Sequence record: PP400781
From: Escherichia phage FL20
Length of the DNA: 64,000 nucleotides
Reading direction: 5' to 3' (one strand)
Shown here: positions 4,519-22,206 of the stretch, piece by piece
How positions within the stretch are numbered: the stretch's first letter is position 1
Layout of the letters: each line of letters starts with the position of its first letter
Notes under the pieces: model-generated
The model's input: only the letters and a program-made list of their open reading frames with translations
The model's database searches: none
Told to the model about the DNA's origin: nothing
Translations under genes and position numbers: made by a program

Positions 4519-5277
4519 TTACTTGCAAACGTATTGATCTACATCAATTGCGCCACCGAATGTAGGATGACGTTTTTCAAATCGAATAGTTCCGTCGTTT
4601 GGTTCGAAAACGGAGTATTCATATAGATCTTTCTTGCCAACATTCTTATAAAACCCGCCTTTCGTCATAACGGTTTCTTGTACGTTTGCTTTGTGTACGT
4701 TGTATTCGTCAATGTATACAAAATCAACCATCTTCCCATTTTTAATGGTTACTTTAAGATCTCCTGGTTGATTTCCATATTTGGCATACAGTGGCGCTTC
4801 TTTAATTTTTGTGGAAATTCCATCTTTCATACTCCACTCATAACGAACGGTGCATTGATAGGTAAAAGTTTCGACCTTCGGTTCTTCCACCACTTTTTCT
4901 TCCTGTTTCGGTTGTTCTTCTTCAACCTTCACAGAAGTCTCTGAATCGCTTTCTGACGCGGTTTCTTCTTTAGGTAATACATTCATCAAATTTTGGATTT
5001 GAGCGTTGTATACAGCCTCCAGTGGCTGGATCTGCCCGATATTGATCATTGTATCACGAACAGTTTTATTCCAGTTGAGTTGCTCTTGTTTAAGAGACGG
5101 ATCAATCTTAACAGCCTTAACATATACTTCATGAAGTTTCGAATCCAGTGCGGAGATTGACTCATTAGCACAAATAAACTTCTCTGATTTGGTAGTGGCT
5201 TTAGCGCAATCAAAGGACGCAGCATTAGCACCGAAAGCAGTAGCGGAAAGAACGATAGCAGCGATAATGTTTTTCAT
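4519..5277 (-). CDS. Secreted protein with LprI/DUF1311-like N-terminal domain (lysozyme-inhibitor-like)
   Basis: 252 aa; signal peptide MKNIIAAIVLSATAFGANA; then C-x10-C ... LDSKLHEVY ... QLNWNK pattern typical of DUF1311; Glu/Lys-rich linker; own promoter at about 5312-5340. Confidence 0.55.
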   Translation of the reverse strand: MKNIIAAIVLSATAFGANAASFDCAKATTKSEKFICANESISALDSKLHEVYVKAVKIDPSLKQEQLNWNKTVRDTMINIGQIQPLEAVYNAQIQNLMNVLPKEETASESDSETSVKVEEEQPKQEEKVVEEPKVETFTYQCTVRYEWSMKDGISTKIKEAPLYAKYGNQPGDLKVTIKNGKMVDFVYIDEYNVHKANVQETVMTKGGFYKNVGKKDLYEYSVFEPNDGTIRFEKRHPTFGGAIDVDQYVCK

Positions 5278-5311
5278 AATATATTCCTCAATGTTTTGTC
5301 TTGATGGGAGT

Positions 5312-5340
5312 ATCTTACTACTCCCTTAATCCGGTGTCAA
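5312..5340 (-). promoter_or_regulatory. Sigma70-type early promoter with dyad spacer
   Basis: Minus strand reads TTGACA-ccggattaagggagtag-TAAGAT; inverted repeat gggagta/tactccc spans the spacer and -10. Confidence 0.55.
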
Positions 5341-5346
5341 CTATTT

Positions 5347-5502
5347 TTAAATTTCTTCTACAGTAAAGTCTTCAATGTTATTGTGCTCGGAGAACGTTGC
5401 CAGACCAGCATTCCATGCATCATCCTCAGAGAAGAATACACCGTAACGTTCATATCCTTTAGCGCCTTCAAATTTAACCATTAATTTGTGAGTATGTTTC
5501 AT
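5347..5502 (-). CDS. Hypothetical small protein (51 aa)
   Basis: ATG at 5500-5502 preceded by AAGGAGAATCAAA leader; the longer track ORF 5347..5565 would run through its own promoter. Confidence 0.4.
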   Translation of the reverse strand: MKHTHKLMVKFEGAKGYERYGVFFSEDDAWNAGLATFSEHNNIEDFTVEEI

Positions 5503-5533
5503 TTTGATTCTCCTTCGTTGTCTTGATGAGTTC

Positions 5534-5562
5534 ATTGTAGGGGATCGGCGATCCCCTGTCAA
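5534..5562 (-). promoter_or_regulatory. Sigma70-type early promoter with GATC-containing palindromic spacer
   Basis: TTGACA-ggggatcgccgatcccc-TACAAT on minus strand. Confidence 0.55.
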
Positions 5563-5572
5563 CAACTATTTT

Positions 5573-5785
5573 TTAATTTTTACCCGCTCGTGCATTAATA
5601 AGCATTTTCTGAATAGCCATGATCTGGCTTACTGCTTCTTCTTTACGTTCTTGCGTGATAACGTGACCAGATTCCGCAAACTCTCCAGCAACTTCTTCTA
5701 CGATCTCGCGAACTTGAGAACGTCCAAAGATGCGGTTTCCTTCGTAGCTCATAAATTCTGTTACTACTTGCTCGATAGATTTCAT
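5573..5785 (-). CDS. Hypothetical small protein (70 aa)
   Basis: ATG at 5783-5785 with AGGAGAATCAC RBS; track ORF extends upstream through the promoter. Confidence 0.45.
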   Translation of the reverse strand: MKSIEQVVTEFMSYEGNRIFGRSQVREIVEEVAGEFAESGHVITQERKEEAVSQIMAIQKMLINARAGKN

Positions 5786-5814
5786 GTGATTCTCCTTTCG
5801 TTTGGTATGGGAGT

Positions 5815-5843
5815 ATAATACTACTCCCATGCCTTTACGTCAA
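5815..5843 (-). promoter_or_regulatory. Sigma70-type early promoter with dyad spacer
   Basis: TTGACG-17-TATTAT; gggagta/tactccc inverted repeat over the -10. Confidence 0.5.
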
Positions 5844-5846
5844 CAA

Positions 5847-6008
5847 CTATTTTAAATTATTTTCGACCTTCACCCATTCCGCGTATTCTTGCGCGGCTAC
5901 TTTCGGATTTAGTCCGTCTTCGTACATTGCATCAAGTAATTCTTTGTCGGTGGGCTTATACCCTAGATAAGCCTCCACCTGATTTTTCCAAATTTTATAC
6001 CAGTTCAT
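5847..6008 (-). CDS. Hypothetical small protein (53 aa)
   Basis: Internal ATG at 6006-6008 just after the stop of the upstream ORF. Confidence 0.35.
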   Translation of the reverse strand: MNWYKIWKNQVEAYLGYKPTDKELLDAMYEDGLNPKVAAQEYAEWVKVENNLK

Positions 6009-6012
6009 ATTA

Positions 6013-6216
6013 TCACCAGTCAAGAGCGCGTGTCTCTGCGTCTTCCCATGCTTGGTCCATAACAGCCTTGAAAACATATTCTAAAGTATCATCTTTAGAG
6101 AATCCGAAGACCTTAGACGGGATATCTTCAATTGCTACTCCAGCAACTTCTGCATTACGCGCTTGGCAATAATGCAACTCTAAGTTATCGAGATAGCGAC
6201 CGCCTAATTTCTCCAT
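6013..6216 (-). CDS. Hypothetical small protein
   Basis: 67-aa ORF; promoter TTGACT-17-CATAAT at about 6318-6344 upstream. Confidence 0.4.
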   Translation of the reverse strand: MEKLGGRYLDNLELHYCQARNAEVAGVAIEDIPSKVFGFSKDDTLEYVFKAVMDQAWEDAETRALDW

Positions 6217-9392: not shown

Positions 9393-10385
9393 TTAGTAAT
9401 GGCTAAAACCTTCGGTCACATCTTCAACCACATAGTAACGATGACAGCGCATTTTGGCATTTGCATAATCTTTCGGGATACTTACAACGTGACGCGGATC
9501 AACTTTGCATTTAATGATTCGGCCTCGTCCACCGCCATAGTGCGGAATATAGTGTTTCGCTGCAACGTGGAGGCCATTAGAGCAAGTGCGATCATCATCT
9601 GGGTCCACGTCTTTACGCTTCATTTTAACCGTGCGACCTGGGCTATTATCAAACGTATGCGTAAAGAAATCTTTATAATCAACATCAACACGTTTCCATG
9701 CATAGAAACAACCATCTTCCACGATCTCAATGTCGTTGTGCTCTAAGAAGTCAAATAGACGATCTACGGCCTTACGGCTAGGGTTTTTCTTGCACTTCTC
9801 AAAGAAGTTAAGATAGTGCGTATATGGCTTATTCTCTTTAATCGACTCCACAACTCGACGAGTCAGATTATTATCAAGAACAATATTATGATAATACACA
9901 ATACCATTTTCGATACGGAAAGCGCCGTGATAATATACTTCAACCGCTTTCTTAATGTCAATCAGCGTAATAGCTTTGATGAAATCATTATGTTTAATCG
10001 CTTCCAGTGCTTCCTTAAAGTTAACATGTGATGGATCAGCAGTATAAACAATGTCACCACATGTAATAGTAATAAACTTAGTTGAGGCTATGGCTACGAT
10101 TTTTGAGGAAGTAGTTACGGGCTTTTTTGCGCGTTCACCGCCTTTTCCTTTACTGGTTTTACGGCGTGCTTTACGTTTTTCTAGTGCCTTGCGACCTTCC
10201 GCTACTGCGTCTTTCTGAATCAGTAATACACGGGAGGCAGTGCGACGAGATACACCAAATGCTGCCGCAAGTGCTTCGCGGGTAGTAAACTTACCTTCGC
10301 CCCACTGTTTAGCCAGTTTGATTTGTTTCGCAGAATCCAGACATTGAACGTTACGGTCAGAGACGGTGATTTTTGCTTTAGTCAT
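9393..10385 (-). CDS. rIIB: rIIB membrane-associated lysis-inhibition protein
   Basis: Collinear with T4 rIIB (SRLFDFL, DGYFYAWK, TFDNSPG, CSRGLHV, VKVHPRDVVSIP, YEVVEDVTE equivalents); ATG at 10383-10385 preferred because the first ATG abuts the RBS. Confidence 0.85.
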   Translation of the reverse strand: MTKAKITVSDRNVQCLDSAKQIKLAKQWGEGKFTTREALAAAFGVSRRTASRVLLIQKDAVAEGRKALEKRKARRKTSKGKGGERAKKPVTTSSKIVAIASTKFITITCGDIVYTADPSHVNFKEALEAIKHNDFIKAITLIDIKKAVEVYYHGAFRIENGIVYYHNIVLDNNLTRRVVESIKENKPYTHYLNFFEKCKKNPSRKAVDRLFDFLEHNDIEIVEDGCFYAWKRVDVDYKDFFTHTFDNSPGRTVKMKRKDVDPDDDRTCSNGLHVAAKHYIPHYGGGRGRIIKCKVDPRHVVSIPKDYANAKMRCHRYYVVEDVTEGFSHY

Positions 10386-10447
10386 AGTATTCATTCCTCT
10401 ATTAGTTGGGCGACTATTGCCGCCCGATTCACATCATTATACCAGAA

Positions 10448-10579
10448 TTATTTTGCTTCGACAACCTTGCGGATTGTGCGGTCTGATACATTATAGATTC
10501 GTGCCAGTTCGCCTTTAGTCAAACCGCGAGCGTATTGTTTACGGATGGTTTCTTTCTGGATGGCGGTCAGTTTAGTCAT
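10448..10579 (-). CDS. Small HTH peptide (43 aa) between rIIA and rIIB
   Basis: Not in the ORF track (under 60 aa). GAGGTGA RBS; translation MTKLTAIQKETIRKQYARGLTKGELARIYNVSDRTIRKVVEAK is a helix-turn-helix resembling the N-terminus of rIIB. Confidence 0.5.
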   Translation of the reverse strand: MTKLTAIQKETIRKQYARGLTKGELARIYNVSDRTIRKVVEAK

Positions 10580-10590
10580 AATATCACCTC

Positions 10591-12705
10591 TTAAAATTTA
10601 ACATTCTTAACCAGTTTCATAAAGTCTTGTGCGCGTTTGTCATTATGCAGAATACGATACCAGTTATCGACAATATCATACAGTAACGGGCTATTCTCTT
10701 TAAACTTCGCACAAACTGCTTTAATTCGTTCGTTTGCTACCGTGAATTTTTCATCACTAATCTTTTTAGTTTCTTCGTCCATAATCCAACGAGTACGAAG
10801 GAGTAACTTGGAAACCTCTTTATTATAATGACGACCGTACAGTCTGTCAATAAATTCTGGAACACAGCGTTCTAGTTCATCGTCATGAAACAACATAGTG
10901 ATCACACCCAGATATTCGCCATACCCCAGATGATTGGTCTTAACCTTCTTAGCCAGACCAGCCAGCTTACCGCGAACAAATTCTAGCGCACATTCCAATT
11001 GTTCGTCAACGAGATATTTTTGTGTCTCGTTTCGAGTAATAATATACTTTGTTACCCCGAAGTAGTCAAGCGCCGTGTGTAATGTATTTTCACTATGGAT
11101 CGATTTACGACTACGGCTTTCGAATGCATCACCTACGCGGAACATGTGCAAGCCTGATAACTCGCGAATCTCTGCCGCTTTCATGTGATGGCTGGTTTTA
11201 TGCCAACTGTCACCAATCTTTTCCATGATATACACGTTAGGCAGCTTAGGAGTCGCTTCACGTTGTGTACGTGTACGCTCGGTCTTCTCCGGTTTAACTG
11301 CTTTAGCACGCAGATCATCGGCCTCAGAAACTTTAATCACGGTCATTTCAGAATCATCATAATACTGTTTGATGTACTCGAAAGTTTCCATATGTTTTTC
11401 GTTGCGCTGACGGAACACCAGTACCTTTTTATTGATGCCGTATTCCTGGACCATACCGTTAAGAGTCAGTGCGCGTAGTTTCGGTTTATCGGTATCATCA
11501 ATAAGACACATAATATCTTCTTTATGCATCCATACAAAATGCGTAATGTTGTATTGACTGCTAACGAAAGCAGGGCGCAATTTACTGATTGTGTGACGAG
11601 TACGATACAGAGTATACACCTGACCTTCTACGTCATTAGGCGAATCTTTACCCGCATTCACAAACTTATTATAGATTGCTACCGGATCATCCCACTGCCC
11701 GGTCTTACCCATCTTGCTAATAATATTGCGTTGAGTCGATGAATACTCGCTCATAAATTGCGCAAGTTTACGCTCTGTTTTAATGTTGGCGATCTTCTCT
11801 TTGACCTTTTCCAACATCATTTCATTGATTTCTGCAATGCGTTTTTCGATGTTCGCTTTAGTCTCAATTGACAAGTGAACTTCTTCACGCGATGGCATCA
11901 GGTCCAGATCACCCAACTCAAAATTAATGTAAATGGTCTGGTGCTGGCGGTTTACAGCTTCTAACCATGTTCCGCGAACATATTCATACGGGATCGGATA
12001 CTGGATCTTACCCATGATTGCATATACTACATAGGAATCGTTATCACGCCCATTACAAACATAATAATTATCAAAGCTAGGGAAATAATTAATTTCGATT
12101 GCATTGATATTAGGTTTGTGTTCCCCAAAATGACGCAGTACAAATTGCGCTTCTCGATGCCATGTCTGAATATCTTTTTCTTTCACCGGAATAGTGATTT
12201 TCAGACCATTGTCTTCATAGGTCGGTTCGTCGAAAATCTGCACCATTTTCGGCATAGAGTTTTGCACAAATGCCGTAAAGCCATAAGCGCGACCATTGTA
12301 ATAGTTTACGATTGTAAAGGTGTCAGTGTAGCTATAAGCAGATTTCGCACCTAAACCAAAAGACCCGATATAGTCATTAGTCTGGTCTTTTGTTGATTCA
12401 AAGTAAACCGTAAACAGTTGTTCTAATTCTTTCTTAGACGGAATACCAGTACCATAATCACGCACAGAAAAATACGGTTCGATTGCAGTCGGTAAATGAA
12501 TATCAAACGGACGATCTAAGGTTCCGGCTTCTTTGTGAGTGTCGGTAGCATTGCACGAATACTCACGGACGCAAGCACGCTCACAATATTGATAAGTGTT
12601 CTTAGAAAGCACCATAAAAGCCTTGCTACTTGCTTTCAGTGAAAAATCAACCGCACCGCTCAGGTCACTGCCAAATACTTCTTCATTATCAATATGCATT
12701 TTCAT
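10591..12705 (-). CDS. rIIA: rIIA protein (GHKL-ATPase-like)
   Basis: 704 aa; N-terminal ATPase-like motifs (GSFGLGAKSAYSY); size and position as T4 rIIA; ATG with GAGGA RBS. Confidence 0.9.
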   Translation of the reverse strand: MKMHIDNEEVFGSDLSGAVDFSLKASSKAFMVLSKNTYQYCERACVREYSCNATDTHKEAGTLDRPFDIHLPTAIEPYFSVRDYGTGIPSKKELEQLFTVYFESTKDQTNDYIGSFGLGAKSAYSYTDTFTIVNYYNGRAYGFTAFVQNSMPKMVQIFDEPTYEDNGLKITIPVKEKDIQTWHREAQFVLRHFGEHKPNINAIEINYFPSFDNYYVCNGRDNDSYVVYAIMGKIQYPIPYEYVRGTWLEAVNRQHQTIYINFELGDLDLMPSREEVHLSIETKANIEKRIAEINEMMLEKVKEKIANIKTERKLAQFMSEYSSTQRNIISKMGKTGQWDDPVAIYNKFVNAGKDSPNDVEGQVYTLYRTRHTISKLRPAFVSSQYNITHFVWMHKEDIMCLIDDTDKPKLRALTLNGMVQEYGINKKVLVFRQRNEKHMETFEYIKQYYDDSEMTVIKVSEADDLRAKAVKPEKTERTRTQREATPKLPNVYIMEKIGDSWHKTSHHMKAAEIRELSGLHMFRVGDAFESRSRKSIHSENTLHTALDYFGVTKYIITRNETQKYLVDEQLECALEFVRGKLAGLAKKVKTNHLGYGEYLGVITMLFHDDELERCVPEFIDRLYGRHYNKEVSKLLLRTRWIMDEETKKISDEKFTVANERIKAVCAKFKENSPLLYDIVDNWYRILHNDKRAQDFMKLVKNVKF

Positions 12706-20618: not shown

Positions 20619-21647
20619 TTAAAATTTACAATATTTCATAAACCGCATTTTAGCCATCAGACCTTGTACGGTGTTCTCTTTGATATATTCCATGATCTGG
20701 TCGCGTGTAGCGCCCTCGTCCTGAATCATGGCGTTAACGTCTTTAGAATGCCACGGGCAACGGTCCCACAAAACAATCTTTTCCCCTGCATTGATAAACT
20801 TTTCCAGTCGGTGCATTGTATCGGCAGACCGTGGTTCCGCATCAAGTACAAACACTCGCTGATCAGGGAAAGGAATTTCATCTAATCCCAAAGTACCGCC
20901 AGTAATTGCACACCCGTTATCAATAAACAATGAATCGATCGGACCTTCTAAGAAATACACTGGTTTACTCGGATCGGCGCGTTCAAGACCATAGACCTTA
21001 CTCGCTAACTCATGAGTTTTAATCGTCATATATTTGGTCTTTCCGTAATCCTTTCTCAATGCTCGCCCCTGAATGGATTCTATCTTGTTCTCGCGGTTAA
21101 AGATAGGAATCACTAAACGCGGTTCAGGTTGTGGATTCTTGAAAGTATCAGCCTTAATGTGATTTGCTACCTTTTGCCATTCTCTCGTGAAATACAGAAG
21201 ATCCCATTTATCGTGAGGAATACAGCGATCACTGACATACTTTATTATAGGATGATTAGCCGGAAGAGTATCTAATCTCTCGCAGAAAGGCAATGTTTGC
21301 ACTTTCTTAATCTCCGGCTTTTCTACCTTTTTCAGTGGCTTGAACGTGGTGTTCTTGTGGTCGCCTTGTTCCTTCCGTCGTTCCATAAGCCATTCCCTGA
21401 ATAGGTCCGGCTTATACTGTTTGAGAAATTCACCTAACGGCTGATTGTAGTTACAGTTGAAACACGATGCGCGTAACGAGTCTTTATAAGTGTAGATTCT
21501 GAAACGCGCCATTGTGCTATTCTTTTTGGAATCTCCGCAGATCGGACATGAGCATACCAATGTAAATGATTGAGTGTGTAGGCGTTTAAAGTTTCTCTCA
21601 CCATATATCGCCTTCTCTGCAATCTCACAATCTGCGTAGTATATCAT
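20619..21647 (-). CDS. 61: DNA primase gp61
   Basis: 342 aa (same as T4); zinc ribbon CPICGDSKK...CFNCNY; TOPRIM region EPRLVIPIFN, LEGPIDSLFIDNGCAITGG, SKDVNAMI, IMEYIKENTVQGLMAKMR. Confidence 0.9.
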   Translation of the reverse strand: MIYYADCEIAEKAIYGERNFKRLHTQSFTLVCSCPICGDSKKNSTMARFRIYTYKDSLRASCFNCNYNQPLGEFLKQYKPDLFREWLMERRKEQGDHKNTTFKPLKKVEKPEIKKVQTLPFCERLDTLPANHPIIKYVSDRCIPHDKWDLLYFTREWQKVANHIKADTFKNPQPEPRLVIPIFNRENKIESIQGRALRKDYGKTKYMTIKTHELASKVYGLERADPSKPVYFLEGPIDSLFIDNGCAITGGTLGLDEIPFPDQRVFVLDAEPRSADTMHRLEKFINAGEKIVLWDRCPWHSKDVNAMIQDEGATRDQIMEYIKENTVQGLMAKMRFMKYCKF

Positions 21648-21651
21648 AATA

Positions 21652-22206
21652 TCACCTCTCTTTATATCGTGATGTTCTGGTCTGACTCTTCCATATTCTT
21701 CTTATGGTTATCGTGTGCACTCCGTATATTATAGCAAGTTCTTTTACAGACGCAACACCCTGTTTAGACCTGATCTCTTCTACTTGATGGTCAGTTAACT
21801 TTGCGTTTCCGTGTGTTTCTCCATAGTTTTTGTTCAATCCTTCTTCTTTAGCGTGTATAAGATTTTCTCTTTGTGTTGTCCACTCAAGGCCATACAGATC
21901 AAAATCCTTTTTATCACCAAATTTGTGATTTACTACAGGGTAGTTGTTTGGATTTGGTATAAATGCTTCTGCTAATGCCCTATGAATATAAACGCCGACG
22001 GTCTTTGGCTTGCCCGACTTTGTTCTGTTGGCGTAATCTCTTATATTACAAGAGACATAACCTTTTGTTATTTTAGTTGATCTGACCTTGCCAGTGGCTT
22101 TATTTCTTAGTTTACCATAAGAACTAATTTCATATTCTGGATACGATACGCCCATATAAACAAGGTCTTTCCATTCTTCTGGATGTTCATCACAATACCG
22201 TTTCAT
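21652..22206 (-). mobile_element. HNH homing endonuclease gene (free-standing)
   Basis: 184 aa; EISSYGKLRN (N-terminal homing-endonuclease-type motif), HNH core VNHKFGDKKDFDLYGLEWTTQRENL, C-terminal HTH; inserted between 61 and the 61.x-type small genes. Confidence 0.7.

Follow-up and report, generated by a model that had tools for sequence, protein, structure and literature searches.

The rIIA and rIIB genes rank among the most celebrated in genetics. In the window analyzed here, a stretch of 64,000 nucleotides from Escherichia phage FL20 (sequence record PP400781), they are separated by a 43-codon open reading frame, ORF43, whose presence raises three questions: whether such a small frame is a gene at all, how it is related to its neighbors, and what its product could do in the locus.

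ORF43 is found on the minus strand at positions 10448..10579. It starts with ATG and, according to the ORF listing, is translated into MTKLTAIQKETIRKQYARGLTKGELARIYNVSDRTIRKVVEAK, a protein of 4.98 kDa with a computed pI of 10.4 and a net charge of +7 (11 K/R versus 4 D/E). Upstream of it lies rIIA (10591..12705, minus strand), which codes for a 704-aa protein of the GHKL-type ATPase family matching phrog_612 (RIIA) with an E-value of 1.5e-186, and whose start is annotated in Escherichia phage kvi two codons downstream of 12705. Downstream lies rIIB (9393..10385, minus strand), with 330 aa counted from the annotated ATG at 10385 and a match to the PHROG RIIB family (E 2.5e-106). The longest ORF for rIIB (9393-10394) would comprise 333 aa, but its ATG at 10394 is left without spacing from the Shine-Dalgarno sequence, whereas the ATG at 10385 is properly spaced. 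The placement of a 43-aa frame between the two rII genes, described earlier in a sequence-only reading of this DNA, is thus correct, and so is the strong GAGGTGA ribosome-binding site that was assigned to it. Along the minus strand, the rIIA stop codon TAA is followed by GAGGTGA (10584..10590, within TAAGAGGTGATATTATG), by TATT, and by the ATG of ORF43, which leaves 4 nt between the Shine-Dalgarno sequence and the start, and 11 nt between the rIIA stop codon and that same start. Since this Shine-Dalgarno sequence abuts the rIIA stop codon, translational coupling between both genes is possible. On the other side, a 62-nt spacer holding a promoter separates ORF43 from rIIB, and the reading frames of the two differ. 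A fusion of ORF43 with rIIA or rIIB by read-through or frameshifting was also considered and discarded, given that the frames differ and are inconsistent among relatives.

The same reading had presented the frame as unannotated, which does not hold. The 401 bases around ORF43 are 100% identical to phage kvi and 97-99.8% identical to 57 other Krischvirus/RB49-like records, which places the window among the krischviruses, and phage kvi shows the order rIIA, a 132-nt "hypothetical protein" and rIIB, all on a single strand. A "hypothetical protein" feature underlies the match to ORF43 in nearly all listed Krischvirus records and, in the two records that were inspected directly, the corresponding CDS are kvi_140 and GEC-3S BN201_0276. 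Phage W115 labels its counterpart "DNA binding HTH domain protein". Moreover, PHROG 15481, a family of 43 positions and unknown function, matches residues 1-43 of ORF43 over the full length (E 3e-34). The protein behind this family and the Krischvirus GenBank entries is identical or near-identical to ORF43, and the entries carry neither a function nor a link to rIIB.

Whether ORF43 is a gene can be judged from its conservation, which had been named as one of the checks for this frame. The protein database contains five clusters of ORF43 (98, 86, 86, 77, and 69% identity), each exactly 43 aa long. The contigs of these clusters, together with the contigs of the closest rIIB homologues, provide six independent relatives, all of which have a 43-45 aa ORF between an rIIA of 692-715 aa and an rIIB of 338-459 aa. 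In all six a strong Shine-Dalgarno sequence (GAGGTGA, GAGGTAA, or GGTGAT) precedes the ATG of the micro-ORF by 4-6 nt. A codon-level comparison with the window gives an amino acid identity of 73-86%, a pS of 0.48-0.79 (largely saturated), a pN of 0.07-0.22, and, where computable, a dN/dS of 0.05-0.33. For the same genome pairs, amino acid identity to the window is 37-44% for rIIA and 55-65% for rIIB. At shorter distance, ORF43 and its counterpart in GEC-3S show two differences, both of them synonymous third-position changes. Invariant positions in the family amount to 27 of 43, and the segment T21-R37, which covers helix 2, the turn, and the recognition helix, is fully invariant except for position 28. 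Residues 21-41 are almost invariant, with the variation confined to helix 1. Judged by these codon comparisons, ORF43 is a real, constrained gene under strong purifying selection, and the best conserved one in the rII locus. The frame is indeed very short and below the usual ORF cut-offs, as would be expected from a non-functional leftover of a partial rIIB duplication or from an untranslated chance ORF. Against this, its length, frame, Shine-Dalgarno sequence, and position are kept among relatives whose synonymous sites are saturated, and the dN/dS values are those of the most conserved gene of the locus, so that an explanation of this kind appears extremely improbable and is effectively refuted by the codon comparison.

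The product was earlier said to be a helix-turn-helix (HTH), and this assignment is borne out. The Pfam family CENP-B_N (PF04218) matches ORF43 with an E-value of 7e-6 and 26.0 bits, above its gathering cut-off of 21.2, and the AlphaFold2 model, built on a 38-sequence alignment, has three helices (residues 6-18, 22-28, and 33-41) and a pLDDT of 86. Around 15 further Pfam HTH families, among them Sigma70_r4, HTH_28, HTH_7, HTH_23, and Mor, match just below their thresholds, and the CENP-B_N match therefore says only that the protein is a simple tri-helical HTH. The closest structural neighbors retrieved with Foldseek are the DNA-bound HTHs of the IstA transposase, gamma-delta resolvase, NarL/LuxR, and CENP-B, with TM-scores of 0.7-0.8 that are statistically not significant (E > 0.1) because the domain is tiny (43 residues). 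PADLOC and NCBIfam searches returned nothing beyond weak, generic HTH matches, and sequence searches of the PDB with ORF43 and with rIIB gave no informative match. ORF43 is basic and has a three-helix HTH, like the Cro, Xis, and Aca-type regulators and the domains of IstA, gamma-delta resolvase, and CENP-B. In contrast to the well-studied autonomous HTH regulators, it is shorter than any of them and lacks a dimerization element. Without an obvious dimerization surface, a 43-residue HTH would bind DNA specifically only in a weak manner when acting alone. Given the modeled fold class and the charge, the target of ORF43 is most probably a nucleic acid.

The resemblance to the N-terminus of rIIB, also claimed from the sequence alone, holds for rIIB modules in general, while a direct likeness to the neighboring rIIB does not. 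BLASTP of ORF43 against that rIIB yields nothing (E 27), so that the relation is visible through profiles only, and even the ORF43 profile gives 2-4 bits to the window's own rIIB and 2-12 bits to the rIIB modules of its clade. When 50,697 phage genomes were searched with tblastn, the top matches beyond Krischvirus fell on the first ~40 codons of T4-type rIIB genes, including those of Klebsiella, Serratia, and Enterobacter phages, and reached 52.5% identity at most (E 0.02). The ORF43 family profile matches residues ~5-45 in 111 of 120 rIIB homologues (best E 1.7e-10), and residues 7-44 in the case of T4 rIIB (E 1e-5). Alignment to the rIIB N-termini of related phages, which had been suggested as a check of the claim, supports it: in MAFFT, ORF43 aligns at full length over the rIIB N-terminal HTH, with 33-44% identity to the rIIBs of other phages and 21-28% to those of its own clade.

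Since HTH similarity is promiscuous, the ORF43 profile was also run, as a control, against 1.84 billion representatives, which resulted in 304 matches at E < 1e-3. Tandem-repeat HTH proteins, HNH endonuclease C-termini, and a few further proteins of 49-60 aa account for many of these, and some of the library proteins exceed every rIIB in single-domain score. Since the first two of these groups share the sequence pattern of ORF43, the boundary of its family is soft. Among library entries P0126-P0143, many are proteins of 220-720 aa built of 4-7 tandem ORF43-like HTH repeats (KLTxxQ..I..Y..G.s..ELA..YgVS..TI.R). Another stand-alone match, P0253, lies in a context unrelated to rII, and a scan of IMG/VR with the ORF43 alignment gave two contigs of Krischvirus and, beyond these, a single HTH from a high-GC phage, which is unrelated.

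These matches bear on a different origin for ORF43, as a remnant or domesticated piece of another HTH gene unrelated to rIIB, for instance the C-terminus of an HNH/NUMOD homing endonuclease that formerly occupied the site between the two rII genes. The top single-domain scores of the ORF43 profile belong to HNH C-termini (48.8 bits for P0144 and 46.8 bits for P0162, the best rIIB reaching 33.5), and the window carries such an endonuclease on the minus strand (21652-22206), a 184-aa protein of the NUMOD4/HNH type whose C-terminal HTH is weakly ORF43-like (E ~1e-4). However, the scores of P0144 and P0162 represent the extreme tail of a vastly larger sample, and a control profile made of 105 rIIB modules, from which both the ORF43 sequences and the clade rIIBs were excluded, gives 44.7 bits to ORF43 and 14 bits to the HTH of the window's endonuclease. 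With this rIIB-only profile the training set itself ranges from 39.6 to 74.1 bits and the clade's own rIIB modules reach about 25 bits, while only three of 149 generic HTH library proteins, pre-selected out of the 1.84 billion for their similarity to ORF43, score above ORF43, the other 146 being below. A score inside the rIIB training range and above most generic HTHs makes ORF43 specifically rIIB-like, and not just any HTH. Besides, the start of ORF43 coincides with the canonical start position of rIIB, right behind rIIA, and no HNH, GIY-YIG, or NUMOD nuclease motifs were found adjoining it in Pfam, PHROG, and NCBIfam searches, all of which renders a descent from an endonuclease very unlikely. 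The window's endonuclease gene is located immediately upstream of a gene of 342 aa (20619-21647), which we take to be a putative primase-like gene.

ORF43 shares with the N-terminal module of T4-type rIIBs (residues ~5-46 in T4) the sequence family, the predicted three-helix fold, and the position directly after rIIA. Unlike that module, it forms a separate 43-aa cistron with its own start, stop, and Shine-Dalgarno sequence, has no linker joining it to the rIIB core (PF26926), and co-exists with an rIIB that still bears a more diverged module of its own. The gene is already catalogued and its fold is very common, and within the family of rIIB N-terminal HTHs it is best regarded as a free-standing member.

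The rIIB of the window retains its HTH at residues 15-54 (10224..10343, minus strand), where the broad module profile matches with an E-value of 7.8e-10. In the AlphaFold model of this rIIB (pLDDT 89) a long helix comes after the HTH, and then a disordered linker (residues 81-92, pLDDT < 50), and in the alignment the linker between HTH and core is of very variable length across rIIBs. The core itself, residues ~95-330, is modeled with a pLDDT of ~90. A Foldseek search of the rIIB model against the PDB found no significant match for the core, which likewise has no sequence relative with a solved structure, and its fold therefore appears to be uncharacterized. The most distant relative (L003; ENA ERZ27260015 k141_60519) encodes an rIIB of 459 aa (4685-6064) in which three tandem HTH modules precede the core, and it also has a free-standing 43-aa gene upstream. 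The number of HTH copies at rII is evolutionarily fluid. The analysis identifies the N-terminal piece of rIIB as an autonomous HTH module, present in zero to three attached copies.

The separable nature of this module might have a precedent in T4. The B1 segment of Crick et al. (1961), which covers the first ~10% of T4 rIIB and is removed by deletion r1589, is reportedly dispensable for growth on K-12(lambda). It would presumably correspond to the N-terminal HTH module of rIIB, and its dispensability would fit a separable accessory module. A literature search on the function of the rIIB HTH, on r1589, and on the dispensable B1 segment gave a single usable result, the listing of rIIB as a probable specific transcription factor by Iyer et al. 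(2021; PMC7824862).

As for its origin, ORF43 had been proposed to be a duplicated module, and its distribution agrees with this: an extra, free-standing HTH of the rIIB type is found in the Krischvirus clade only, and the rIIB of this clade keeps its own HTH. In three outgroup loci, with rIIBs 42-55% identical to that of the window, rIIB comes directly after rIIA, which points to the micro-gene as an addition in the Krischvirus lineage. Their junctions consist either of a stop/start overlap or of an 83-87 nt spacer with a UUCG-loop terminator and an early promoter. In two outgroup contigs of the T4 type (L013 3411-3500 and L014 3415-3500), the intrinsic terminator with its UUCG tetraloop comes first and is followed by a T4-style early promoter with a GTTTAC/GTTTAA -35 and an extended -10. 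This order of elements is opposite to that of the Krischvirus clade, where promoter and stem-loop are merged into a single cassette of the type known as PeSL.

ORF43 begins no more than about 3 residues away from where rIIB canonically starts and, like rIIB in T4-like arrangements, it is placed directly after rIIA. The rIIB of the clade has an extra leader of ~10 residues before the motif R-N-V-Q-C-L, which corresponds to the x-V-K-C/I-L of canonical N-termini and, in the three-module rIIB, also to the linker-plus-start of its internal modules. The 5' HTH part of rIIB would have been duplicated or captured in an ancestor shared by Krischvirus and its metagenomic relatives, and would have become a separate cistron by a PeSL cassette landing between it and the rest of rIIB. 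ORF43 would then have retained the ancestral position behind the rIIA stop, the strong Shine-Dalgarno sequence, and a near-canonical sequence, while the copy attached to rIIB would have acquired the ~10-aa leader and diverged. The event may have been the split of a two-module rIIB, or the duplication or capture of a 5' rIIB fragment. Given that ORF43 is not especially similar to the clade's rIIB modules, a duplication in situ demands a strong divergence of the attached copy, and it is equally possible that the 5' part of a foreign rIIB was captured horizontally.

The transcription signals around ORF43 suggest how it would be expressed. According to a promoter scan, rIIA contains near its 3' end (10822..10850, minus strand) a consensus sigma-70 promoter, TTGACA-17-TATAAT (12/12), 243 nt upstream of ORF43 and about 240 nt ahead of the rIIA stop codon. 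Despite an rIIA identity of only ~40%, each of the six clade loci has a promoter scoring 10-12/12 at a distance of 194-374 nt upstream of the micro-ORF, and the final 500 nt of rIIA showed none in two outgroups. Such a clade-conserved promoter within rIIA suggests that ORF43 has its own early promoter besides read-through from rIIA. A second promoter, TTGTCG-17-TGgTATAAT with an extended -10, is located at 10436..10464 (minus strand), its -35 falling within the last codons of ORF43, and the same -35 and -10 are annotated in the GenBank record of GEC-3S. At this site the relatives have TTGACA-17/18-TA(T/C)(A/T)AT, mostly with a perfect TTGACA. In the window this promoter is followed by a predicted stem-loop, GGGCGGC-AAUA-GUCGCCC (10408..10425, minus strand), of 7 bp including one G-U pair, and the RNA between ORF43 and rIIB folds at -17.1 kcal/mol (z -2.5). 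All six relatives carry at the site a GC-rich hairpin of 7-9 bp (z -1.6 to -4.6), which differs in sequence, contains G-U pairs in two of them, and is placed downstream of or around the -10. A search of Rfam with positions 10250-10900 found no RNA family.

This arrangement corresponds to the promoter-early stem-loop (PeSL) cassettes of phages phi1 and RB49, of which there are about 50 per genome (Arbiol et al. 2010; PMC2839356). These cassettes fall into five subclasses according to the position of the stem-loop, whose stem may include G-T pairs, and have been shown experimentally to be strong promoters and terminators in phi1/RB49. They have also been proposed to mediate modular shuffling, and PeSL-like sequences were noted in between the two parts of DNA polymerase genes that are split (PMC2839356). 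What lies between ORF43 and rIIB shows the components by which PeSLs were defined, namely an upstream stop codon, a sigma-70-like promoter, a stable GC-rich stem-loop, here with a G-T pair, and a downstream Shine-Dalgarno sequence and ATG, and the stem-loops of the relatives take other published PeSL positions, such as overlapping the -10. While the PeSLs of phi1/RB49 are mainly found in hyperplastic regions beside ORFans, this one is within the conserved rII locus. The PeSL promoter would drive rIIB, and the stem-loop in the 5' leader of rIIB is predicted to act as a terminator or attenuator of the rIIA-ORF43 transcripts.

Small HTH autoregulators encoded beside phage counter-defense genes are an established pattern. 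In an Aca/Cro-like fashion, ORF43 could repress the PeSL promoter of rIIB or the rIIA promoters, and in this way tune the anti-exclusion genes of the rII locus, an autoregulatory role that the sequence-only reading had considered. In its favor, the protein is small and basic, its HTH has an invariant recognition helix, it is encoded in the locus immediately upstream of a promoter, and an inverted repeat overlaps or adjoins the -10 of that promoter. However, this repeat varies among relatives (GGGCGGC, GCGCCUC, CGUCCUGA, and others), moves relative to the -10, and has G-U pairs, while similar elements occur ~25 times in the window and ~50 times per RB49/phi1 genome. A variable repeat with G-U pairs, facing an invariant recognition helix, fits an RNA or terminator hairpin rather than an operator. 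The inverted repeat was therefore judged unlikely to be an operator, being a generic PeSL hairpin whose sequence is not conserved among relatives, and no conserved operator-like motif was seen beside the rII promoters of the window and the six relatives. An autoregulatory role is accordingly considered unlikely.

Another function that has to be weighed is that of an adaptor or split subunit which binds protein instead of nucleic acid, the free HTH docking on rIIA, on rIIB, or on a conserved host protein. This could re-create a two-HTH rIIB in a non-covalent manner, or involve competition with the tethered HTH. The module normally works within rIIB, and some three-helix HTH-like domains do bind proteins, as is the case of sigma region 4, to which ORF43 has a Pfam match (E 2e-4). 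The far higher conservation of ORF43 compared to rIIA and rIIB would also fit a partner that evolves slowly, for instance a host protein. On the other hand, a partnership with rIIA or rIIB would predict co-variation and not near-invariance, and the high positive charge together with the conserved helix S-x-R-T-I-R-K is typical of DNA contact, which leaves the adaptor as an improbable function. The near-invariance of ORF43 beside fast-evolving rIIA and rIIB speaks for a slowly evolving partner, which could be DNA, RNA, or a host component, rather than for either of those two proteins.

The best explanation, to which we assign a probability of roughly 60%, is that ORF43 is a real, early-expressed, free-standing paralogue of the tri-helical rIIB HTH that acts in trans, probably by binding nucleic acid. 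Nearly every T4-type phage has this HTH joined to the rIIB N-terminus. Following the signals in the sequence, ORF43 would be transcribed both together with rIIA and from the conserved promoter inside the rIIA 3' end, the transcripts would be attenuated at the PeSL stem-loop, and rIIB would be re-initiated from the PeSL promoter. Through its invariant helix 2-turn-helix 3 face, the resulting strongly basic 5-kDa protein would recognize the kind of target that the rIIB HTH also binds, most likely a nucleic acid, and would thereby work in trans as a modulator, or third component, of the rII locus. It would be neither a catalytic protein nor a dead remnant. A bolder version, in which rII becomes a three-gene system with ORF43 as "rIIC" and the free HTH occupies the target of the rIIB HTH in trans, is regarded as distinctly unlikely, and its extreme form is the recognition of the PeSL stem-loops themselves. 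A "specific DNA-binding protein" acting on PeSLs was already the subject of speculation by Arbiol et al. (2010; PMC2839356). If ORF43 did recognize them, its role would be genome-wide, in the control of early promoters or in the shuffling of cassettes.

In one phage clade, then, the HTH module of rIIB also exists as a separate gene that is more conserved than rIIA or rIIB. It offers a tractable handle, as a peptide of 5 kDa can be synthesized to ask what the rIIB HTH binds. The locus also illustrates clearly how a PeSL promoter/terminator cassette can be placed at the boundary of a gene fission or duplication. In the window as a whole, a simple scan finds ~25 PeSL-like elements, all of them on the minus strand, with examples at 5340, 5562, 5843, 13429, 13798, 26964, 47613, 48848, 49758, 52983, 56184, and 62363. 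[quoted passage not shown]
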